Source of the DNA: Candidatus Melainabacteria bacterium RIFCSPLOWO2_02_FULL_35_15
GTDB taxonomy: Bacteria; Cyanobacteriota; Vampirovibrionia; 2-02-FULL-35-15
NCBI GenBank assembly: GCA_001784585.1
Contig: MFRN01000013.1
Coordinates: 93,894 to 157,893, forward strand
Direction of reading: 5' to 3'
DNA length: 64,000 bases
Part shown: in pieces, positions 47,168 to 60,895 of the stretch
Numbering within the stretch: position 1 is the stretch's first letter
Layout: each line of letters begins with the position of its first letter
Position numbers and translations under genes: made by a program
Notes under the pieces: model-generated
Told to the model about the DNA's origin: nothing
The model's input: the letters and a program-made list of their open reading frames with translations, nothing else
The model's database searches: none

Positions 47168-47527
47168 ATGAAAGACAATAAAGTAAATCTTGAGACCTTT
47201 CCTAATAAATACCCAAAAAGAGGCTATACAATAACCATTACTTGTCCTGAATTTACTTCTGTATGCCCTAAAACAGGGCAGCCTGACTTTGGGACAATAA
47301 TTATTGAATATATACCTGATAAGCTCTGCATTGAGTTAAAGTCACTAAAATATTATCTTTTAAAGTATAGAAATGAAGGTATTTTTTATGAGTATGTAGT
47401 AAATAAAATTCTTGATGATCTACTAAAGGTATTAAAACCAAAACAAATTACTGTCACTGGAAACTTTACAGCCCGGGGTGGAATTAGTACAAGTGTGGTT
47501 TCGAAGTATTTAAAAAAAAGAAATTAA
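47168..47527 (+). CDS. queF: NADPH-dependent 7-cyano-7-deazaguanine reductase (unimodular)
   Basis: QueF motif ELKSLKYYL and the catalytic Cys in [11 protein letters not shown]. Confidence 0.8.
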
Positions 47528-48876
47528 CTACAATTAAACTCTTTTATTAACTCATCAAATACAATAAACTCATCCGTAGGATGTGTAAAAATATTTCCAT
47601 ATGTTTTTTCTTTTGAATCTTCTTTTGTTATGCTGATAGAAATACCACCTTCACCTTGTGTTTCCTGCAACTTGCTACAGAGTCTTTCCAGTTCACTTAC
47701 TTTATATTTCAATCCTTTTTTTACAGGTGATGCTGAAGTTTCCTGAACATCTTCAAGATATTTTTTAAGCTGATCATTAACAGGTACATTAGGATCAAAT
47801 CGAAGACCCAGTCCTGAAATTAATGCAGCTTTTAAAACAGCAGCATTTCGTACTTTTCCAGCACTGATATTAGTCTGTCCTTCGGTACTTATCACATATT
47901 CTATTGCCTTTTGTAAAACTTTTAAATAATTATATGTCTTTTTAAATTCTGTTAGAGCTTTATTTGCTTCATTATTGTTTTCACCAAGTGTCCCTTTGAA
48001 ATAATTTTTAAGTTGAGTTAATGAAGTATCAGTATTAATTTTAGGAAAAACCTTTGTAATTGAATCATTGTCACTGACTAAAGTACCTTCTACATAATGT
48101 TTTGCTGCAGAGTATACTATTGCAAACTCATCCGGCACAAGACGATCTAAATCAAATTTCCCGGCTTCAATTTCATTCAGGTCTAAAAATTGCCCTGTAA
48201 TTGTTTGGGGGAGAGCATTTTTTTCAGAATCTGGGGTAGTTAAGCAAACATCTCTTGTTCCAATTATGTAACCTGTTAAAATAGCAAGTCTGTCTTTTAA
48301 ATCCGGGAAATAAATTTTAGCATCGATTCCATTTCCATTAATCAGTTCTATTTCTGGTCTACCCCTGTATTTAGTAACAATATTTTTAATTTCATCATTT
48401 GTCCAGCAAGTAAATAAATTTCTGGCTTGGGCTATAGTATCGCCGTCAGGGTTTCCATTTAAAATATTTAAAGAAAGCCCCAGTACCTTATCAGAATTTG
48501 CAGAAACTTTTGCTACTGAATTTCCTATATTTTTTACAAGAGTTTCATCTGTCAGAGCAAATGGAGCAGTTTTTACATCAGCTTGTTTTTCTTTTTTTAT
48601 CAGCTTCCATACTTTGTATAAGAAATAACCTGAAAATATAGCTCCACCACCGGCTAAAAATTTAAAGAACCAGTCTGGTACACTATCTTTCCCGGGAATT
48701 ACTTCAGCAAATGTTCCAAATGTGAAAGCTGCTGCTGCTCCTACTGCAGCTCCGCCCAGATTTGCTCCTAAGCCGGCAAATGATTTGGCATCATCATATA
48801 AACTGAATCCTGAAGAATTCTTCTGTGTGCTTGGTCTTGCCAGTATGGCGTTGTTCGGTATGGCTAAAGTCGTCAT
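47524..48876 (-). CDS. Hypothetical membrane-anchored protein (450 aa)
   Basis: Gly/Ala-rich hydrophobic N-terminal segments, otherwise no motif. It is probably co-transcribed with 48962..49660. Confidence 0.45.
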
Positions 48877-50033: not shown

Positions 50034-50588
50034 ATGTTAAAAAATAAAACAAACAATAATTTAAAGGCATCTAATTTGTCATCACTTAAAACAGTTTATC
50101 TTGGCATTGGGACCAATAAAGGCACCAGAGAAACAAATATTTCAAGTGCTATTAACCTGCTTAGCAATATAAAAGGAATAAAACTTTTAAAAATTTCAAA
50201 GATGCTAAAAAATCCTCCCCAGGAAGGAATTAAAAGTGGTTATTTTTTAAACGGGGCCATAAAGCTTCTGACATCATTGACTCCGCTTGAGCTTTTAAAA
50301 GTGTGCAAGAAGATAGAGAAGAAGCAAGGACGCAAGGAAACAAGAATACAAAGAAGGAAAATATCAAGAGTTATAGATCTCGATATTTTATTTTATGGAA
50401 ATGAGATTATTAATACGAAAGAACTAACCATCCCGCATCCAATGATTGAAAAGAGATATTTTGTTTTAATTCCGCTTATGGAAATTGCAAAAAGATTTGT
50501 ACATCCTCTTTTGAAGAAAAGTATAAAGGAATTGTATATCGACTACTGTGCCCCTACCAGCATTAAAAACTGTGCAAGTGCTGTATGA
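50034..50588 (+). CDS. folK: 2-amino-4-hydroxy-6-hydroxymethyldihydropteridine pyrophosphokinase
   Basis: HPPK pattern (VYLGIGTNKG ... IDLDILFYG ... IPHP). The start is uncertain; an N-terminal extension is possible. Confidence 0.7.
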   Translation: MLKNKTNNNLKASNLSSLKTVYLGIGTNKGTRETNISSAINLLSNIKGIKLLKISKMLKNPPQEGIKSGYFLNGAIKLLTSLTPLELLKVCKKIEKKQGRKETRIQRRKISRVIDLDILFYGNEIINTKELTIPHPMIEKRYFVLIPLMEIAKRFVHPLLKKSIKELYIDYCAPTSIKNCASAV

Positions 50589-51616
50589 AGGCTTGAATAT
50601 TGACTTGGGTGCAGCTTTGGCTGTCTGTATTTTTTATGGATTTCAAGCCTTAGGGTTGGAATTGAAAAATCTTCAAAAAGTAAATGATTTATTGTCTTCA
50701 TTTCTTTTGAAATAACATCTTTTGAATCGTAGCCGATTTTTTTAAAATCTTTTACCTTAAGCATGCTGGTCAGCAGGTGTAAATATTCTGTTCTGTTTAT
50801 CAGTGAACTGTTATTCCAGCTATTTAAAATTAATTCATGCGGGCTGTTCCAGTTTTCTATGCCATGCAGGATTAAAACAAGTTTTAAATTTGTTTTTTTA
50901 ATCAGCTGACTTAAAAAACTTACATAAGGAGAGGTTAAATAATAAACAGGATCACTGGCTGCACAGTAAGAACTTACCAGGGAGTGGCATCCTGTTAATT
51001 TATGCAGTAATACTGCCAGTGAGCCGGTGTAAGATTCAGAAGAGTGCCAGTTTCCATCAGTAAAAAATGCAGTTGAATGCGGGGCCAATACTAAAGCCGG
51101 AATTTCACCACCGTAATATTCATAATCAAATTCACCTTCAGGTGGATACTGTTCAGATCTTCTTTTTAACTGTGCCTCAAACTGAGTGGACCAGGCAATT
51201 GTGTCAAAATTTGTAGGATGATTTACCAGATAAGAAAGAGCTTCTTTTAATTTATTAAAACGTGCTTCAGAGTGAAATAAAACCCATGGGCTAAATGGCT
51301 CATTTCCTACTACTACGACCTGTTTTCCCTGCCCGTGAGCATAAAACATTTCCATGGTTGCAGATTCAGTGACCTGTGTAAGATTTGCCAGCAGAGAATC
51401 TGCCCTGTCTATTAGTGACAGTGAGTGTTTTACTGCACTTGTAGATTCACCTACGCTTTTTACAAAACCAGTTAAATCCAAATCCAGTGGATTGGCTACA
51501 GTAATGCCTGATCGTATAAAGGTGCTTGCAGCATAAGCTTTCCAGTCAGTAGAAACTCCAAGCGAAGGATCACTGAGTGCAATTGGCGGCCCTGATAAAT
51601 ATATTGATGTTGGCAT
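50543..51616 (-). CDS. Fusion protein: N-terminal nucleoside 2-deoxyribosyltransferase-like domain plus a C-terminal amidohydrolase-like domain
   Basis: The N-terminus has SIYLSGP and FYAHGQGKQVVVVG, as in the NDT/YtoQ fold. The C-terminus has PALVLAPHSTAF and LILHGIEN, which look like N-formylglutamate amidohydrolase-like motifs. The second call is weak. Confidence 0.45.
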   Translation of the reverse strand: MPTSIYLSGPPIALSDPSLGVSTDWKAYAASTFIRSGITVANPLDLDLTGFVKSVGESTSAVKHSLSLIDRADSLLANLTQVTESATMEMFYAHGQGKQVVVVGNEPFSPWVLFHSEARFNKLKEALSYLVNHPTNFDTIAWSTQFEAQLKRRSEQYPPEGEFDYEYYGGEIPALVLAPHSTAFFTDGNWHSSESYTGSLAVLLHKLTGCHSLVSSYCAASDPVYYLTSPYVSFLSQLIKKTNLKLVLILHGIENWNSPHELILNSWNNSSLINRTEYLHLLTSMLKVKDFKKIGYDSKDVISKEMKTINHLLFEDFSIPTLRLEIHKKYRQPKLHPSQYSSLHTALAQFLMLVGAQ

Positions 51617-52140: not shown

Positions 52141-53268
52141 ATGCAGGTTTTATTAGAAAATAAAAATATAGATTTCAAAAATCAAATTGAAGATTTTATT
52201 TCCAGAAATTTAAAAACCACTAAAGACATTAATCTGAAATTGTTATGGCAAAATCTTTTTAAAGAAGGGATTATTTCCAGAGAAAACAGTTTTTTTCAAA
52301 ATGTTTTACTAACAGAAGCCTTGTGTAAATTCAAACCGGGCATTGGTCTTTTTTTGCTTACTCAGTTTGCATGTATTGAAACCATAAGGGAATTTGCATC
52401 GGAAAATTTGATGGAAAAATATCTGAACAAACTAATCTCGGGTGAAATTATTTCCTGTTTTTCAATTACAGAGCCAAATGCAGGTTCTGATGTAAGCATG
52501 ATTGAAACTTTTGCAAAAAAAGAAGGAAACAAATGGATATTAAACGGACATAAAATCTGGGCGAGTAACGGTTCAATATCTGACATTATTATTACTTTTG
52601 CCCAGACAAAATCTGTAAAGGCGATTCATGAATTGCCTCAACGAGATAAATCAGGAATAACCTGTCTTATTATTCCATCAAAGTGCAAAGAAGTAGAAAT
52701 CTTAAAAGATACTCCAAAGCTGGGTGTAGAGATTACTCCATCAAATGAAATTCTTATAAAAAATTTAATGGTAGATGAACAGTTTCAAATAGGAAATATC
52801 GGGGACGGAATAAAAATTGCACTTGGCACCATTTCACTTGGAAGAATCTTCTGTGCAGCACAGGCTGTGGGTCTGTTAAGCGGAATCTTGGAAGAATCTG
52901 TTAAACACAGTACAAAAAGAAATCAGTTTGGGAAATCTATCTCGGATTATCAGGCTATAAAATGGTACATTGCAGATATGACAAAAGACCTTGACGGAGC
53001 AAGATTACTCCTTTATAAAGCAGCATGGGCAAAAGAAAATCATCCTGAAGAATTAAATAAACTTTCAAGTATGGCAAAATATTTCTGTACAAGTACAGCA
53101 CAAAAACACTCTTCAAATGCAGTTCAGATTTTTGGAGGTGCAGGATTAATTAAAGATTCCTATGTAGCATGTGCTTATAGAGATTCAAAGGTTCTAGAAA
53201 TTTATGAAGGAACAAATGAAATACAAAGACTGGTTATCGCCAGAGAAATCCTGCAGAATCACAGTTAA
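52141..53268 (+). CDS. Acyl-CoA dehydrogenase
   Basis: ACAD N-terminal, middle and C-terminal domain motifs (the catalytic-base region YEGTNEIQRLVIAR). Confidence 0.8.
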   Translation: MQVLLENKNIDFKNQIEDFISRNLKTTKDINLKLLWQNLFKEGIISRENSFFQNVLLTEALCKFKPGIGLFLLTQFACIETIREFASENLMEKYLNKLISGEIISCFSITEPNAGSDVSMIETFAKKEGNKWILNGHKIWASNGSISDIIITFAQTKSVKAIHELPQRDKSGITCLIIPSKCKEVEILKDTPKLGVEITPSNEILIKNLMVDEQFQIGNIGDGIKIALGTISLGRIFCAAQAVGLLSGILEESVKHSTKRNQFGKSISDYQAIKWYIADMTKDLDGARLLLYKAAWAKENHPEELNKLSSMAKYFCTSTAQKHSSNAVQIFGGAGLIKDSYVACAYRDSKVLEIYEGTNEIQRLVIAREILQNHS

Positions 53269-54133
53269 TCGCGATTCTACTTATGGTTTAAAGGATTTTT
53301 TACGACAAATAAATTTAAACAAAGATAAGCTGAAAAAAATTGAAGCTCTGTTAGTGGGTGCATTCCGGAGTAATAAGTTTGGCAGCGGGTTTGATTTTAA
53401 TGAAATCAGAGAGTATAAAATCGGAGACGACTTAAGACATATAAGCTGGAATGCCACCGCAAAAACAGGCATTCTTCAGACAAAAGAATATTTTACGGAG
53501 AAAGAAATTTATTCTTATTTTTTAATTGATATAAGTAATTCAATGTTTTGTGGAAACAAACCTGAACCGTTTATAAAATTATTTGCATTTCTCCTGAATA
53601 TGGCTGTTAATTTTAGTGAAAAAATTGGTGGTGTTTTCTTTTCGGATGAAATTAAATATGTTTTCCCTTTGTCTGGCACCGGCTCGCAGACAAATCTTCT
53701 GTTTAAAACATTTTTAAACGTGCTTGATGGTTTAAGCATGCAAAATAAAGAAAAATCATTCCGCAAGACTGTTACAAATTTTTCCAGCGCTTTGAATTTT
53801 GTCAAAAGATCATTTTTAAAAAAAGGATTGATATTTGTTATAAGTGATTTTATAAATATTTCAAACTGGGAAAAGCCGATTTTTGAAACCTCTCAAAAAC
53901 AAAATATATATTTGTTTCAAATTTATGATTCTCTGGATTTTAATCTGCCTCAGGAGGGCTATGTTGCTTTAATAGATCCTGAAACAAAACAACGTTGTAT
54001 TGTTAATACTGATAGCAAAATGATTTGGGAGAATTATCATAATGTAATGTCTGAAAAACAAAAAAGACTTAAAATGTTTTTTGAAAGTATCGGGGTGCAT
54101 CATCTGACAATTGAAAAAAATGATTTCATCTGA
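53204..54133 (+). CDS. DUF58 family protein (vWA-like)
   Basis: DUF58 signature G.GFDFNEIREYKIGDDLRHISW. The true start is probably a non-ATG codon at about 53330. Confidence 0.6.
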   Translation: MKEQMKYKDWLSPEKSCRITVNRDSTYGLKDFLRQINLNKDKLKKIEALLVGAFRSNKFGSGFDFNEIREYKIGDDLRHISWNATAKTGILQTKEYFTEKEIYSYFLIDISNSMFCGNKPEPFIKLFAFLLNMAVNFSEKIGGVFFSDEIKYVFPLSGTGSQTNLLFKTFLNVLDGLSMQNKEKSFRKTVTNFSSALNFVKRSFLKKGLIFVISDFINISNWEKPIFETSQKQNIYLFQIYDSLDFNLPQEGYVALIDPETKQRCIVNTDSKMIWENYHNVMSEKQKRLKMFFESIGVHHLTIEKNDFI

Positions 54134-55094
54134 CAATATAAAAAATTACGACATAATTATTATTGGCGGAGGGCCGGCAGGATTAGCCGGTGGTTTATAT
54201 GCTGCTCGTGGAAATATGAAAACAGTTATTCTGGAAAAACTAATTCCAGGAGGACAATTAAATAACACTCTGGATGTCGAGAACTATCCTGGCATGGATC
54301 ATGTAACCGGGCCACAGATAGCTCAGGCTATGGAAGGACAGACAAAACGCTTTGGCTGTGAGATTGTAAATAACTGTAATATTACAGAAGTAGAATTAAA
54401 TGAAGGCAGGCACATTATTAAATCCGATAAAGGAACTTACAGGGGAAAAGTGTTAATTGTTGCTACTGGCTCTGAATATAGAAAGCTCAATATACCAGGC
54501 GAAAAGGAGTATAGCGGAAAAGGAGTCAGTTACTGTGCAGTGTGTGATGGTGCTTTTTTTAAAGATAAAAAACTAGTCGTAGTAGGCGGAGGAGATTCTG
54601 CGGTGGAAGAAGGAATATTTCTTACAAAGTTTGCAGGCAGTGTAACCATAATCCACAGAAGAGATAAATTCCGGGCTGAAAAAGTTATTCAGGATAGAGC
54701 ATTTAAGAATCCGAAAATAAATGTTATTTGGAATACGACGGTTTCTGAAATTAAAGGAGACGGGAATTCTGTAGTAGCTATAAGGATTAAAAATATTGTT
54801 ACAAATGAAGAAAAGGATTTCCCGTGTGATGGAGTTTTTATTTATGTCGGACTTGATCCAAATACACAGTTATTTAAAGGCAAATTAAAAATGGATCAAA
54901 CAGGGAGAATAGAAACCAGTGAAAAAATGGAAACAAGTGTTGCCGGAGTTTATGCTGCCGGAGATGTAAGGGAAACTCCGCTTAAGCAGGCTGTAACTGC
55001 AGCTAGTGATGGTTCTTTAGCTGCTACAATGGCTATAGAATACATAGAAAGTTTGCATGATAGAATTACCTATAAAAGCGGAGTGTTTTCTTGA
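54111..55094 (+). CDS. trxB: Thioredoxin reductase
   Basis: Two GxGxxG motifs and the redox-active CAVC. Confidence 0.9.
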   Translation: MKKMISSDNIKNYDIIIIGGGPAGLAGGLYAARGNMKTVILEKLIPGGQLNNTLDVENYPGMDHVTGPQIAQAMEGQTKRFGCEIVNNCNITEVELNEGRHIIKSDKGTYRGKVLIVATGSEYRKLNIPGEKEYSGKGVSYCAVCDGAFFKDKKLVVVGGGDSAVEEGIFLTKFAGSVTIIHRRDKFRAEKVIQDRAFKNPKINVIWNTTVSEIKGDGNSVVAIRIKNIVTNEEKDFPCDGVFIYVGLDPNTQLFKGKLKMDQTGRIETSEKMETSVAGVYAAGDVRETPLKQAVTAASDGSLAATMAIEYIESLHDRITYKSGVFS

Positions 55095-55993
55095 AAACAC
55101 GGAGCGAAATAAAAATGAAACGACGTCCATATAACAGAAATCAACACAGAAGACCTCACCAAAGACCAAGTAGCAGGGGCAGGATTGATGTGTTTGTCCA
55201 GAAGAAAAATTTAGACATAAATTGCAATGTAGGACAAGGCTTTGGCATTTATCAAAATCAGCATGAAGAAAAATTATTTCCATATGTGACATCTATAAAT
55301 ATTGCCTGTGGAGCACATGCAGGTGATCCACTTACAATGGCGCGGGTTATAGATCTGGCAAGAAATCACAATATAAGCATTGGTGCATTAATTGGTTTTG
55401 ATGACAGGGTTGGAAACGGTGAAAGAGAAATGTACCTGGGTGTGGAAGAACTTAGGGCAATGGTTCTATATCAGCTTGGAGCATTACATGCACTGCTTCA
55501 CTCAAAAGGTCTTGAAATAAGGCATGTCAGAACACATGGATTTTTATACAAACAGCTTTACACTGATATTTTAATTGCTGAAACAGTAGCAAAAGCAGTA
55601 AGTGAGTTTAGCAGATGGATTACACTTGTTGGTTTAAGCGGATCTGTTTTAGCTACAGCATGTACAAACGCAAATATCAAAGCAGGTCACGAGGTACAGG
55701 TGGCCAGAAGGTACAGAAAAGACGGGACGATTTTGCCACATAGTCCCGGCATAAATGTAAAAAATCTACTTGAGGGCGCTGCAGACAGGGCCAGGGAATT
55801 AATTCAAACCGGAAGATTAACCTGTGAAGACAATAGCAAAATTCGTGTAAACATAGACACTATCCATGTTCCATCTGACAATGAACAGGGCATTGAACTA
55901 GCCAGGTTAATCAGGGCAATGATTCCGGAACCAAAACCTTTACATATGGATAAGTTTGACAAATATCTTGCCAGCGTATCGGTGTTAAATTGA
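55091..55993 (+). CDS. pxpA: LamB/YcsF family protein (5-oxoprolinase subunit A-like) with an Arg-rich N-terminal extension
   Basis: The LamB/YcsF core begins at LDINCNVGQGFG. It is preceded by KRRPYNRNQHRRPHQRPSSRGR. No pxpB or pxpC is nearby. Confidence 0.7.
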   Translation: MKTRSEIKMKRRPYNRNQHRRPHQRPSSRGRIDVFVQKKNLDINCNVGQGFGIYQNQHEEKLFPYVTSINIACGAHAGDPLTMARVIDLARNHNISIGALIGFDDRVGNGEREMYLGVEELRAMVLYQLGALHALLHSKGLEIRHVRTHGFLYKQLYTDILIAETVAKAVSEFSRWITLVGLSGSVLATACTNANIKAGHEVQVARRYRKDGTILPHSPGINVKNLLEGAADRARELIQTGRLTCEDNSKIRVNIDTIHVPSDNEQGIELARLIRAMIPEPKPLHMDKFDKYLASVSVLN

Positions 55994-55997
55994 CAAT

Positions 55998-57680
55998 TTG
56001 TCAATTGCCTGCTTTGTTCGCGAAGTGAAGCAAACGAGGAATGAAGTGACGAAATCATCTCACAAATGTCTTATCGGACAAATTATATCCGGATCTTTTT
56101 CCAGGGGACTTTTATTAAAACTGTCAAATGATTTTAATGTAGAAGACTTAAGAATCGGGAAGTTTGTAGTTATTGAAGGTGAAAAAACAAAATATTTTTC
56201 AATGGTTACGGATATTCTTCTTGAGACAAATAATCCAAAATTTTTAAATCATATTCCATCACCTGAAGACAGTTTTATAAAAGATGTTTTAAAAGGTTCA
56301 GCAGTATACAGCCTGATACAGTTAACTCCTTATTTAATGGTAGATTTAAAGGATAAAATTGCAGAGGATTCCGTAAGCAGAGTAAAAACAGTTCCGCCTC
56401 ATTTCTCAAGTGTCTATGAAGCTCAGGAAGATGATATAGAACAAATATTTGGCAAAGAAGAAAAATTAAATAAAAACTTTTACATTGGCTATCCGCCTGA
56501 AATGGAAATACCGCTATGTATAAATCTTGATAAGTTTGTACAGAGATCAAATGCAGTATTTGGAAAATCCGGTACAGGAAAATCTTTCTTAAGCAGAGTA
56601 CTTTTATCCGGGATCTTAAAAAAAGATGCAGCAAGTGTTTTAGTCTTTGACATGCACAATGAATACGGCTGGCAGGGGACTAGTGAAGACAATAAATCTA
56701 TAAAAGGATTGAGACAGCTGTTTGGTGATAAGATTGAAGTTTTTACACTTGATCCTGAAAATAAAAGTTATACATTTAAAGATGCTGTAGATCTTACAAT
56801 TAGTTATAACCAGGTAGAAATAGAAGATCTTGAGTTATTGCGTGGAGAGCTGGGTCTTTCAGAAGCAGCGCTTGATCATGCAAGGATGATTCAAAGAAGT
56901 TTTGAGAAGGACTGGTTTTCAAAAATTTGCAACATGACTCTTGGAGAAATAGAAGAGTTTTGTGCACAAAATGGTGCAAACATAGGATCAATACTGGCTT
57001 TACAAAGAAAGTTAAATACTTTGGTGGATTCGGTTAAATACTTAAAACCTGTAACCAGTTATGATGGCATAAAAAAAATACTTAACTTTTTAACCAGCGG
57101 AAAAAGTGTGGTTTTACAGTTTGGAAGACTAAATAATTTAAAGAGTTATATTCTGGCTTCAAATATAATAACCAGGCGTATACATGCTGAGTACGTTAAT
57201 TTAACCGAACAATATTTATTAGATACTACAAAATTTCAGGAACCTAAAAAGCTGGTAATTACGATAGAAGAAGCGCATAAGTTTTTATCACCTCAGGTTG
57301 CAAAGTTTTCAACCTTTGGAACTATTGCCCGGGAGCTTAGAAAATATAATGTAACTCTGTTAATTATTGATCAAAGACCGTCAGGAATTGACAGTGAAGT
57401 ACTTTCGCAGATTGGTACACGGGCCACACTTCTGCTAAATGATGAAAATGATATTAATGCAGTTTTTGTAGGTGAATCCGGCGGAAATAATTTAAAGACT
57501 ATTCTTTCCCAGCTAAATCCAAAACAAGAAGTTCTAATGTTCGGATATGCAATGCCAATGCCCATTGTGGTTAGATCGAGAAGATACGATTCGGAATTTT
57601 ACAAAGAGATGAATAAAGAAGAGAAGTTAACAAAAGAAGAGATCATAAGACGCGGGGAGCTGGCTGCGGCTGAATTATAA
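55998..57680 (+). CDS. HerA/DUF87-type (FtsK-HerA superfamily) ATPase
   Basis: Walker A AVFGKSGTGKSF, Walker B LLIIDQRPS, and a predicted N-terminal HAS-barrel-like domain. It starts 5 nt after the pxpA stop. Confidence 0.6.
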   Translation: MSIACFVREVKQTRNEVTKSSHKCLIGQIISGSFSRGLLLKLSNDFNVEDLRIGKFVVIEGEKTKYFSMVTDILLETNNPKFLNHIPSPEDSFIKDVLKGSAVYSLIQLTPYLMVDLKDKIAEDSVSRVKTVPPHFSSVYEAQEDDIEQIFGKEEKLNKNFYIGYPPEMEIPLCINLDKFVQRSNAVFGKSGTGKSFLSRVLLSGILKKDAASVLVFDMHNEYGWQGTSEDNKSIKGLRQLFGDKIEVFTLDPENKSYTFKDAVDLTISYNQVEIEDLELLRGELGLSEAALDHARMIQRSFEKDWFSKICNMTLGEIEEFCAQNGANIGSILALQRKLNTLVDSVKYLKPVTSYDGIKKILNFLTSGKSVVLQFGRLNNLKSYILASNIITRRIHAEYVNLTEQYLLDTTKFQEPKKLVITIEEAHKFLSPQVAKFSTFGTIARELRKYNVTLLIIDQRPSGIDSEVLSQIGTRATLLLNDENDINAVFVGESGGNNLKTILSQLNPKQEVLMFGYAMPMPIVVRSRRYDSEFYKEMNKEEKLTKEEIIRRGELAAAEL

Positions 57681-57687
57681 TGTTTAA

Positions 57688-58281
57688 TTAAAACAAAGCC
57701 GCCTCAATAAATAAATTTTTAATATCTTCAGTCTGAATAGCAGTAAGAATAAATCCGTTTTTGTTTGATGTTAATTCTGAATCAATATCACCGATAAAAA
57801 TTTTTTTACCTTCTTTCTTTGCCAGGTCTATACTGACTAATTGATCAATTAAATAATTTAAAAACCTGGTCTCAGCTTCGGCATTAACTACATTAGACAG
57901 TTCACCTGCAATATTTGCAATAGTCTGAAAAACATCTTTGTGCCTTGATTGTATAAAGTTTATTTCTATTAATTGTTTTATTTGCTCATACTCACTGCCT
58001 TCGTAAAGTAAATTTATCTGTGCCTGTGCAACTGCCAAAAGATATTTTTTGTAAACAGGGCTTTCATCAGAATTTTTAATATGGAAAATTTTTTTTGCAC
58101 TATTGTACAATGTGGGCAGAGTCATTAAAAAGACAGCAGCTTTTTTATCCCTATTCTCATAAGCTGCTTCCAGCACCTCTGCGAGAATAATATCAGGATA
58201 TTTTTTACTGAAAATCTCTGCAACCCTGATAATTTTGGGATTTGTTGCTCTAATTGATGACATTAGGAAACATACTATCAC
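57688..58281 (-). CDS. Hypothetical protein (197 aa)
   Basis: ORF only. It is convergent with the HerA-like gene. Confidence 0.35.
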   Translation of the reverse strand: MIVCFLMSSIRATNPKIIRVAEIFSKKYPDIILAEVLEAAYENRDKKAAVFLMTLPTLYNSAKKIFHIKNSDESPVYKKYLLAVAQAQINLLYEGSEYEQIKQLIEINFIQSRHKDVFQTIANIAGELSNVVNAEAETRFLNYLIDQLVSIDLAKKEGKKIFIGDIDSELTSNKNGFILTAIQTEDIKNLFIEAALF

Positions 58282-58309
58282 ACCTTTTTAGTGTCTTGGT
58301 TAAATTAGT

Positions 58310-60895
58310 TTAGTTAAACAAGCTCAATTGTCCGGACTCTATCTGTGATTTTATAGTCTCTTTTTTTAATGGTGCCTGGGATTTGTTATACATAATGTTC
58401 ATGATAGTTTGGGCTCTCAAAAGCAGTTCTTTAGGCAGCCCGGCCATTTTTGCAACTTCTATGCCGTAACTTTTGTCTGCTCCACCGGGAATTACTTTTC
58501 TTAAGAAGATTACATGTCCTTCTTCTTCTTTTACTGTAACCTGATAGTTACAAATAGATTCATATAAATCAGCAAGCCCGTTTAATTCATGAAAATGAGT
58601 AGCAAAAATTGTTCTTGACATTTTATTTTTTACCAGATATTCAGCTAATGCCCATGCTATAGCTACACCGTCATAAGTGCTGGTTCCACGCCCTACTTCA
58701 TCAAGCAGAATTAAACTTTTTTCAGTCATCCGGTTTAATATTGCACCTGTTTCAGTCATTTCTACCATAAACGTAGACTGTCCTTCAGAAATATCATCTG
58801 ATGCACCTACACGTGTAAAAATCTGATCCACTATTCCAATCTGTGCATAATCACACGGTACAAACGATCCGCTCTGTGCAAGTATTATATTTAATGCAAT
58901 CTGTCTCATGTAGGTACTTTTACCAGCCATGTTTGGACCGGTGAGAATAATTAATTGTTGTTTTGATTTGTTATATTCTAAATAGCAGTCATTAGAAATA
59001 AAATTATTAAATCCTGCTTTTTTTTCAATAACCGGATGCCTTGAGGCTTTCAAATCTATAATTCCGGAATTGTTTAAGACGGGTCTTTTGTAATTATTTA
59101 TAACTGCTGCCTGTGAAAATGAAAAAAGTGTATCTAAGCATGAAATGTTATAAGCAAGTTCTCTGATTATTGAACCAAAACTTTTTACTTTTTCCCTGAT
59201 CTGACAGAATATTTCATATTCTAGAGTTTTAGTTCTTTGTTCTGCATGAAGTGCTTTTTGTTCAAACTCTTTTAGTTCATTTGTAATAAACCGGGATGAG
59301 TTAACCATTGTCTGCCTGCAAATGTATTCCGGTGGTACAAGCGGCAAATTTCCTTTGCTGATTTCTATAAAATATCCAAATGTCCTGTTAAAGCCTACTT
59401 TAAGGTTTTTAATTCCTGTTCTTTCTCTTTCAATTGTTTCAAATGATTCTAAATAGCTGTCTCCATTTTCCATTATTTCTTTTAATTGTTTTATTTCATT
59501 ATTAAATGCAGGCTTGATTAAATTCCCCTCTGTTAATGTATTTGACGGATTGTCTAAAATTGCATTTTCAATTATTTGCACTACTTCTACAATTTCTCCG
59601 GGGTAGTTAATGATTTTTTGTAAAAAAGGTGATTTAAGATTTTTAAGCGCTGCAGAGAGTGAAGGAACTTCCATTAAAGATTCTTTGAGTGCTATAAGCT
59701 CTTTGGCATTTACGGCAGAAGCGCTTAGACGAGAGCTGATTCTTTCCAAATCGAATATTTTTTCAAGTGATTTTGTGATTTTACAAAATAAATATTTATT
59801 TTGAATTAACTCTTCTATACAATTCAGTCTTAAGTTAATGGAATCCAAATCTAACAGTGGCTGCTCAATCCAGGCTCTTAGTCTTCTTTTTCCCATTTGT
59901 GTCTTTGTAAAATCAATGGCCCAAAGCAATGAATTGCTGTAACATTTATCTTTTATGCTCTCTGTAAGCTCCAGGTTTTTCCTGGTCATTTTATCAAGAT
60001 TTAAAAATGAGTTAACCCTGTAAGGAATTATTTTTTCAAAGTTTGGTCTTTCCACCAGCTGTGTTTTATCTATATAAGCCAGTATTGCACCACTTGCAAT
60101 TTGTCCCAGAGCTAAATCAATTCCACCTAAGCTTTCTATGGACTGTATTTGTAATTCTTCCTTTATTCTTTTATTTGCAAAATCTTTATTAAAGTATTCA
60201 TTTTCCAAACCGGTACAAAACCAGTTTTCTTTAATTACTACATCCATATCCAGTGTTTTTTCCTTAACAATCTGATTTTCGTTTTTTTTATAAATCACCG
60301 GAATCAGCACTTCTGAAGGCATTGTCCGGTTTAATTCTGAAATAAGTTCATCAAAGTTTAATTCAGTAAAGAAAAATTCTCCGCTCGATACATCTGCATA
60401 TGCAAAACCATAAGAGTACCGTTTTTTGTCTTTATAAACAGACGCTATGAAATTATTTTTTGTTTGTGGAAGCCAGTCTGTTTCAAGGACTGTGCCTGGT
60501 GTAAGTAATTTTGTAACTTCCCGCTTTACAATGCCTTTGGCTAAAACAGGATCTTCCATCTGATCGCAGATAGCTACTTTAAAACCTTTATCTAAAAGTT
60601 TTGAAACATAATTAATTACTGCTTTTGCCGGTACACCGGCCATTGGTATTCTGCCGTTTGGATAATTTGTTTCTGCTCTGCCTGTAAGTGTAAGTTCCAG
60701 CTCTTTTGAAATAATTTTTGCATCTTCAAAAAAAGTTTCATAAAAATCACCTACTCTAAAAAAAAGCAGTACATCAAGATCGTATTTATACTTGATTTCA
60801 AGAAACTGCCTCATAAGAGGTGTAAATTGTTCCGGGTTTTGAGGCCACTGGATCTCTTGTTCTGTTTTTTCTTTTTCGGCTAAGCTAATATTCAT
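58310..60895 (-). CDS. mutS: DNA mismatch repair protein MutS
   Basis: 861 aa with the mismatch-binding N-domain and Walker A GPNMAGKST. Confidence 0.9.
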   Translation of the reverse strand: MNISLAEKEKTEQEIQWPQNPEQFTPLMRQFLEIKYKYDLDVLLFFRVGDFYETFFEDAKIISKELELTLTGRAETNYPNGRIPMAGVPAKAVINYVSKLLDKGFKVAICDQMEDPVLAKGIVKREVTKLLTPGTVLETDWLPQTKNNFIASVYKDKKRYSYGFAYADVSSGEFFFTELNFDELISELNRTMPSEVLIPVIYKKNENQIVKEKTLDMDVVIKENWFCTGLENEYFNKDFANKRIKEELQIQSIESLGGIDLALGQIASGAILAYIDKTQLVERPNFEKIIPYRVNSFLNLDKMTRKNLELTESIKDKCYSNSLLWAIDFTKTQMGKRRLRAWIEQPLLDLDSINLRLNCIEELIQNKYLFCKITKSLEKIFDLERISSRLSASAVNAKELIALKESLMEVPSLSAALKNLKSPFLQKIINYPGEIVEVVQIIENAILDNPSNTLTEGNLIKPAFNNEIKQLKEIMENGDSYLESFETIERERTGIKNLKVGFNRTFGYFIEISKGNLPLVPPEYICRQTMVNSSRFITNELKEFEQKALHAEQRTKTLEYEIFCQIREKVKSFGSIIRELAYNISCLDTLFSFSQAAVINNYKRPVLNNSGIIDLKASRHPVIEKKAGFNNFISNDCYLEYNKSKQQLIILTGPNMAGKSTYMRQIALNIILAQSGSFVPCDYAQIGIVDQIFTRVGASDDISEGQSTFMVEMTETGAILNRMTEKSLILLDEVGRGTSTYDGVAIAWALAEYLVKNKMSRTIFATHFHELNGLADLYESICNYQVTVKEEEGHVIFLRKVIPGGADKSYGIEVAKMAGLPKELLLRAQTIMNIMYNKSQAPLKKETIKSQIESGQLSLFN

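Follow-up and report, generated by a model that had tools for sequence, protein, structure and literature searches.

PxpA proteins (Escherichia coli YbgL, UPF0271; PDB 1xw8, 1v6t, 2dfa, and 2xu2) adopt the beta/alpha-barrel fold of the LamB/YcsF family, and in the published model 5-oxoproline is phosphorylated by PxpB/C, while its opening and dephosphorylation fall to PxpA (PMC13274462). ATPases of the HerA clade are described from several settings, including the archaeal HerA-NurA machine for resection of double-strand breaks (PDB 4d2i), the anti-phage SIR2-HerA and DUF4297-HerA systems (PDB 8wiv, 8xau, and 8j4u), the stand-alone, partner-less YjgR of E. coli, and a cyanobacterial family (Sll0284, Glr4405, Synpcc7942_0981, and Alr3799; KEGG K06915). 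Synechocystis Sll0284 was reported in a Grad-seq study as a highly conserved DUF87/HAS-barrel protein with bacterial relatives that are “largely undescribed”, and its family has no experimentally defined function (PMC8136920); a review lists it as an FtsK/SpoIIIE-like protein of the HerA clade and files cyanobacterial proteins under the “YjgR family” (PMC7766704). One review was the only match in the literature searched for alr3799 and Synpcc7942_0981; an Anabaena “FtsK” reported to interact with ZipN may belong to this family. Both protein families meet in the 64,000-nucleotide (nt) stretch analysed here (the window), part of contig MFRN01000013.1 of Candidatus Melainabacteria bacterium RIFCSPLOWO2_02_FULL_35_15, in which a LamB/YcsF-fold protein is encoded directly upstream of a HerA-clade ATPase and a third gene, for an orphan protein, converges on the pair.

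A first-pass annotation of the window listed these three open reading frames (ORFs), which are present as it described them, and asked whether the ATPase was a HerA motor with LamB or the convergent protein as its effector; had such an effector been borne out, the locus would have represented a HerA system of a type not seen before. The locus is instead read here, with a probability of about 0.7, as a clade-specific juxtaposition, probably co-transcribed, of two independently conserved genes, with the orphan belonging to the mutS unit. LamB, and not its pairing with the ATPase, is the unusual element of the locus.

The comparison of gene neighbourhoods carries this reading. Outside the source clade, none of 82 ATPase loci has LamB within 8 kb, and none of 80 metagenomic LamB loci has the ATPase within 6 kb. 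Clustering of the genes within 4 kb of the ATPase returned no phylum-wide neighbour, and the clusters that emerged are clade-level only (a sigma factor in 30 loci, a GST-like protein in 27). The nearest homologues of both proteins come from “Candidatus Melainabacteria” metagenome-assembled genomes (MAGs) and from metagenomes of gut or other origin. Inside the gut-type clade, the LamB-HerA adjacency is kept throughout, down to 69% identity of the ATPase and 55% of LamB; among the ATPase genome matches listed, none exceeds 69%, and the closest relatives are thus outside the matches listed. The adjacency is part of a conserved block that reads HPPK / deoxyribosyltransferase-like / 64-aa / ACAD / DUF58 / TrxR / LamB / HerA / ... 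/ MutS / RND (ACAD, acyl-CoA dehydrogenase-like; TrxR, thioredoxin-reductase-like flavoprotein), a clade-level synteny based on four contigs, including L003, L087, and L088. Because the entire block from HPPK to MutS is equally conserved, the pair carries no specific signal, and its adjacency is a clade-level synteny of gut-type Melainabacteria, an accident of gene order. The partnership first raised as a possibility loses support with the absence of the adjacency from the loci compared outside the clade and the synteny of the whole block within it.

The source would be a gut-type melainabacterium, one of the non-photosynthetic Cyanobacteriota, with an ordinary chromosome on which ACAD, DUF58, TrxR, LamB, and HerA form one co-directional run. 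The window has a G+C content of about 34% and carries housekeeping genes, including those for PutA, PheT, DnaG, and MutS. From ACAD to LamB the genes overlap or are at most 20 nt apart, and no terminator-like site lies between genes of the run from ACAD to the ATPase, the sole plus-strand match falling inside the flavoprotein gene; the order ACAD-DUF58-TrxR is the same in L003, L087, and L088. The likely start of LamB is ATG 55115, which has GGAG 10 nt upstream and is the common start of all homologues in the alignment; for the ATPase it is GTG 56046, which has GAGG 6 nt upstream and agrees with identical database entries called as 544 amino acids (aa). With this corrected start, the 5-nt spacing first read between the two genes becomes about 52 nt. 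The juxtaposition would amount to clade-level synteny and probably co-transcription, with no effector-motor system.

The HerA-clade ATPase and its described relatives

The assignment of the ATPase to the FtsK/HerA superfamily holds and narrows to the HerA clade, with a DUF87 match at E=6e-34. The N-terminal barrel that had been predicted is found in the orthologues, which carry a precomputed HAS-barrel match, while the window protein itself (E=3e-5) scores 24.5 bits, slightly below the Pfam cut-off of 25.2. The Walker A motif GKSGTGKS is present as first read; the Walker B motif, in contrast, is not LLIIDQRP but VITIEEAH. Solved HerA proteins have hhhhEEAH at the aligned position, and their conserved SQRP motif, downstream of Walker B, aligns with DQRP. 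We take this DQRP/SQRP motif, from HerA structures, to be probably the sensor/Arg-finger region. The C-terminus ends in a conserved RGELAxxEL tail.

The orthologues of the ATPase in Synechocystis and Gloeobacter are Sll0284 and Glr4405; identity to Glr4405 is about 50%, in an alignment that spans 98% of the query. Domain order, the invariant Walker A/B and QRP motifs, and the C-terminal tail are common to the whole Sll0284/Glr4405/Synpcc7942_0981/Alr3799 family, from which the window protein has no structural difference; only the neighbourhood differs, with LamB upstream in the window clade. At 45-53% identity, the family extends to Gloeobacter, Pseudanabaena, Nostoc, Synechococcus, Thermosynechococcus, Crocosphaera, the reduced Epithemia endosymbiont of a diatom, Sericytochromatia, and Obscuribacterales. 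A scan with each GTDB species represented by a single genome gave at least 587 relatives; the best 80 of these were evaluated, and all 80 are full-length with 45-52% identity. In an alignment of 14 sequences, the mean column identity is 66%. Few uncharacterised proteins of the Cyanobacteriota are as conserved as the Sll0284-type ATPase, and for model strains no other FtsK-like candidate is listed. Since the ATPase is kept in non-photosynthetic gut Melainabacteria, its role is unrelated to photosynthesis.

Each of the described HerA systems resembles the ATPase in part. With archaeal HerA-NurA it has in common the HAS-barrel and HerA core (profile E=4e-22, over the C-terminal ATPase half) and a Walker B of the EEAH type, but it has no NurA, Mre11, or Rad50 neighbour in the window, where no Pfam match to NurA was found, and its scores against the archaeal HerA models of NCBIfam are far too low (83 vs 800 bits for NF040937; 59.4 vs 970 for NF040819). 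The anti-phage HerA proteins are its best sequence matches in the PDB (profile E=1e-22); unlike them, it has no adjacent effector domain, is spread vertically across the phylum, and stays far below the equivalog cut-offs. As a stand-alone, partner-less member of the HerA clade it resembles E. coli YjgR, from which it differs in being closer to HerA proper, in having a HAS-barrel, and in lacking DUF853 (no match to Pfam PF05872 at E≤0.01). Strict membership in YjgR/DUF853 was considered and rejected: the hhalign alignment (87.6% probability, E=3.5e-6) covers the C-terminal 165 columns only. The first-pass annotation had named a conserved, partner-less, YjgR-like family as the finding that would undo its proposal; the ATPase is indeed conserved phylum-wide, and no partner gene family is shared across 84 orthologous ATPase loci, but it does not belong to DUF853/YjgR proper. 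Because its family profile fits solved HerA proteins (E ~1e-22), fits YjgR in the C-terminal half only, and falls far under the NCBIfam HerA cut-offs, the ATPase is best classified as a HerA-clade family of its own. From its homology to solved HerA proteins, it may be a ring-forming (hexameric) ATP-driven nucleic-acid translocase. The window gene would then be the lineage copy of a Cyanobacteriota-wide Sll0284/Glr4405-type protein, with a HAS-barrel collar and an FtsK/HerA P-loop core, that works without a dedicated neighbouring nuclease, probably in chromosome or DNA transactions.

In many photosynthetic cyanobacteria (L012-L084), the Sll0284-type ATPase has same-strand neighbours on both sides: upstream, at about 175 nt, a GST-like gene (27 loci), and downstream, at about 630 nt, a gene of the sigma-70 family (30 loci). 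The MAGs L071 and L075, which bear the titles Rhizobium sp. and Sphingobacterium thalpophilum, carry a cyanobacterial-type ATPase with 46-47% identity, probably through binning contamination or mislabelling and not through horizontal transfer.

The tailed LamB proteins

The LamB protein has the family fold, with a full-length Pfam match (PF03746, LamB_YcsF, E=6e-63) and a best match of E=7e-48 among four solved LamB/YcsF structures (PDB 1v6t). Its AlphaFold2 (AF2) model has a core with a predicted local distance difference test (pLDDT) score above 90 and, in Foldseek, template-modelling (TM) scores of 0.87-0.91 to the four structures, at 30-34% identity with PxpA; the CG-x-HAGDP motif is kept. 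Within the source clade, its members are 55-98% identical, with an intact barrel fold and purifying selection. Nevertheless, the protein differs from PxpA in staying below every NCBIfam PxpA cut-off (218.8 vs 226; 187.1 vs 392; 172.4 vs 337; 167 vs 213; 150.9 vs 378 bits), in bearing extra sequence at both ends, the N-terminal part being a disordered, Arg-rich tail of 32 aa, and in its signature residues. Specifically, the window protein has N-x-N-x-G-Q, GAL, and VRTHG in place of N-x-D-x-G-E, GAH, and VKPHG, so that the invariant D, E, H, and K become N, Q, L, and R; the canonical residues are kept in 4/4 solved structures and in nearly all of about 70 canonical metagenomic PxpA proteins with readable motifs. 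The pattern is drawn from the four solved structures, 120 close homologues, and 80 metagenomic loci, and the replaced residues may be catalytic ones.

Three states of the family can be told apart. Canonical PxpA has the unaltered motifs, only 3-7 residues before the first of them, pxpBC nearby in 28/32 loci, and no HerA. A “cyanobacterial-type” LamB, 40-46% identical to the window protein, has N-x-N-x-G-E, GAH, and VRPHG and a 33-39-aa tail beginning MRR, without pxpBC and without HerA. In the window clade, with about 86 sequences, the motifs read N-x-[N/D]-x-G-Q, GAL, and VR[TA]HG; an Arg-rich tail is present, pxpBC are again missing nearby, and HerA lies directly downstream. The substitutions D to N (N/D in the window clade) and K to R are thus common to both tailed groups, and the window clade adds E to Q and H to L.

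The basic N-terminal extension noted on LamB is real, with 11 R/K against 1 D/E in 32 residues, and is predicted to be disordered (pLDDT ~40). It is atypical with respect to canonical PxpA, being absent from the ~70 canonical loci, but it is no local oddity, since comparable tails are conserved across the subfamily (about 120 homologues; median length 34 aa, R+K 26%, D+E 2.7%). Its composition and modelled disorder suggest a tail of the polyanion-binding type that may bind nucleic acids.

The stand-alone state of LamB, also noted at first, is borne out by tblastn with E. coli PxpB and PxpC as queries, which gives no match (E≤0.01) in the whole 64-kb window and none beside any LamB of the tailed subfamily with adequate flanks, and is positive at 28 of the 32 canonical LamB loci with adequate flanks. 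Given the published division of labour between PxpA and PxpB/C (PMC13274462), a stand-alone protein without the invariant acidic and histidine residues is unlikely, judging by its sequence, to be a 5-oxoprolinase subunit. The tailed proteins form a coherent LamB/YcsF subfamily; the literature searched contains no description of it and nothing on YcsF in cyanobacteria. The automatic label “5-oxoprolinase subunit PxpA” is probably wrong for this subfamily. On this reading LamB is not a canonical A subunit of 5-oxoprolinase but a protein that gained a tail, lost its linkage to pxpB/pxpC, and had invariant polar residues replaced, from which a changed or lost catalytic role is inferred.

DUF58 is the only neighbour family common to the cyanobacterial-type and melainabacterial tailed-LamB loci. 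It lies within 1-5 kb of tailed LamB in 12 of 13 loci, the 13th being too short to judge, and in none of about 70 canonical PxpA loci; the loci compared include the window, L085, L086, L090-L093, L096, L112, L003, L087, and L088. In the cyanobacterial-type loci, DUF58 is paired with a MoxR-type AAA+ gene; a MoxR gene was looked for in the window and none was found. The linkage of tailed LamB with DUF58 reaches deeper than that with HerA; since it is seen in only two independent lineages and DUF58 is a multi-copy family, it is no more than suggestive.

All nine cyanobacterial-type LamB loci have, just downstream of LamB, a 183-224-aa gene with weak similarity to Peptidase_M78/DUF6782, which is convergent with LamB and 63-151 nt away in 8/9 (the L095 copy is partial and about 1.1 kb away). 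Where the flank is long enough, these loci also encode a TPR protein, upstream, in 8 cases and a GAF-LuxR regulator in 7. Cyanobacterial-type LamB and the M78-like, TPR, and GAF-LuxR genes may thus form a conserved local module.

Alternative readings of the locus

Several points speak against a mere juxtaposition of LamB and the ATPase. The two genes are tightly packed in the clade (stop and start overlap by 4 nt in L003/L004, and 3-52 nt separate the genes elsewhere), which is compatible with co-translation of partners; the E-to-Q and H-to-L changes occur in the very clade that has the adjacency and could mark a neofunctionalisation tied to HerA; and both families are conserved in one phylum, so that gene order by itself would also be compatible with a trans-encoded partnership elsewhere in the phylum. 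To these are added that two NCBI records label members of the cyanobacterial-type LamB group as Planktothrix sp. and Drouetiella sp. MAGs, labels taken as the records give them, and that the absence of pxpBC applies to the 64-kb window. The tight packing, and the coincidence of the extra LamB substitutions with the adjacency, keep it conceivable that in gut Melainabacteria the tailed LamB works together with the HerA-like motor, as its adaptor, regulator, or effector; the fused operon would then reveal a partnership that is trans-encoded elsewhere in the phylum. The adjacency is, after all, kept clade-wide with overlaps or short gaps, and a basic disordered tail could bind DNA or enter the translocase pore. 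Such a partnership is nonetheless unlikely: the whole block of 8-10 genes is equally conserved, neither the 82 HerA loci nor the 80 LamB loci outside the clade have the adjacency, the neighbour of tailed LamB in both lineages is DUF58 and not HerA, and PADLOC knows no HerA system with a LamB-fold partner. A more specific form of the idea, rather improbable, makes the tailed LamB a repurposed or dead barrel with a nucleic-acid-binding tail and the missing partner of the Sll0284-type HerA, trans-encoded in other Cyanobacteriota; if true, the operon of gut Melainabacteria would expose a new DNA-transaction module of HerA plus a LamB-fold protein. For the juxtaposition reading, we infer that functional coupling between LamB and the ATPase is absent.

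The other two alternatives concern the identity of the proteins. LamB could be an ordinary PxpA and part of a dispersed 5-oxoprolinase, with pxpB and pxpC at another place in the genome, and the strong LamB_YcsF match, the best PxpA subfamily score (218.8 bits, barely below 226), and the intact barrel under purifying selection would fit this; but residues invariant in canonical PxpA are changed, all three NCBIfam equivalog models stay far under their cut-offs, and every tailed member with adequate flanks lacks the pxpBC that most canonical controls have, which makes the dispersed enzyme quite improbable. That the three genes are an anti-phage module of HerA plus effector, with LamB or the convergent protein in the latter role, is extremely improbable. 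Generic PADLOC models of HerA do match parts of the ATPase (best E=5e-33, residues 22-226), and its nearest solved sequences include bacterial defence HerA; against this, the PADLOC effector and defence models give no match for LamB or for the convergent protein, the NCBIfam HerA_antiphage model gives 86.5 bits against a cut-off of 800, and the orphan is dispensable in relatives. Moreover, the ATPase is vertical across the phylum, including a reduced endosymbiont, and sits in a syntenic housekeeping context, the opposite of patchy, island-borne defence genes. The defence-like system suggested at first, and with it an effector role for either neighbour, which has neither conserved linkage nor a defence-model match in its favour, is therefore set aside.

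The convergent orphan and neighbouring genes

The convergent protein, first flagged as having no known identity, still has no match in Pfam, NCBIfam, or PADLOC, and its length is most likely 191 aa and not 197. Its gene converges on the ATPase gene, with stops 7 nt apart, and follows mutS, which is on the same strand, at a distance of 28-46 nt; mutS is probably the upstream gene of its transcription unit. The orphan is 38% identical in a relative whose ATPase and LamB are 81% and 68% identical; a word-based search found 7 homologues and an exhaustive profile search of 1.84 billion proteins found 21 representatives. Its AF2 model (pLDDT 43.6, mostly helical) is too poor for a fold search. The protein is lineage-specific and not a conserved HerA partner, and it would be the orphan that ends the mutS unit. 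Two candidate relationships gave negative comparisons, namely with the unannotated gene after HerA in Obscuribacterales (L002) and with the gene after LamB in L085/L086, the M78-like putative metallopeptidase.

The mutS gene bounds the slot in which the orphan lies. In L003, L087, and L088 the syntenic genes are annotated with MutS_I-V domains, and tblastn with the window MutS matches L003/L004. Between the ATPase and mutS, L087 (7620) has no gene, the window and L003 have one each, and L088 (7598-9977) has four small ones, one of which is a diverged copy or distant homologue of the orphan; the slot is a hotspot of fast-evolving small orphans, some of them distant paralogues of one another.

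Table 1. Coordinates of the features of the locus (window positions, unless another locus is named)
Feature	Position	Strand	Details
LamB/YcsF-fold protein, divergent stand-alone subfamily	55115..55993	+	292 aa; mechanical ORF from TTG 55091 (300 aa)
Arg-rich N-terminal extension of LamB, predicted disordered	55115..55210	+	MKRRPYNRNQHRRPHQRPSSRGRIDVFVQKKN; from composition and pLDDT
LamB motif DINCNVGQG	55214-55240	+	altered signature
LamB motif CGAHAGDP	55307-55330	+	LamB signature
LamB motif GALIGFDD	55382-55405	+	altered signature
LamB motif VRTHGFLY	55526-55549	+	altered signature
HerA-clade P-loop ATPase	56046..57680	+	544 aa; mechanical ORF from TTG 55998 (560 aa)
Walker A GKSGTGKS	56562-56585	+	ATPase motif
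Walker B VITIEEAH	57255-57278	+	aa 404-411 of the ATPase
DQRPS	57357-57386	+	aligned with SQRP, downstream of Walker B
Fast-evolving orphan	57688..58263	-	191 aa from ATG 58263; 197 aa from GTG 58281
ATPase-mutS slot	57681-58309
mutS	58310..60895	-	ORF
Upstream co-directional genes	52141..55094	+	Pfam matches; same run as LamB
Acyl-CoA dehydrogenase-like (ACAD)	52141-53268	+	Pfam
DUF58	53204-54133	+	Pfam
Thioredoxin-reductase-like flavoprotein (TrxR)	54111-55094	+	Pfam
Terminator-like site	54173-54191	+	inside the flavoprotein gene
M78-like gene, L085	7048-7599	-	equivalents in L090-L093, L095, L096, and L112
M78-like gene, L086	6971-7522	-	as above
Deoxyribosyltransferase-like protein	50543-51616	-	357 aa
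ORF	31990-33591	+	533 aa; no Pfam match at E≤1e-5
ORF	47524-48876	-	450 aa; no Pfam match at E≤1e-5

Upstream of LamB, the mechanically called ORFs for the ACAD-like protein and DUF58 have 65 nt in common (53204-53268), against 45-47 nt in relatives, either as a true overlap or because the DUF58 start lies further downstream. Lastly, the 357-aa protein has a weak N-terminal match to nucleoside 2-deoxyribosyltransferases (E=9e-6, below the cut-off), its C-terminal ~250 aa are without assignment, and its position is kept in all relatives.

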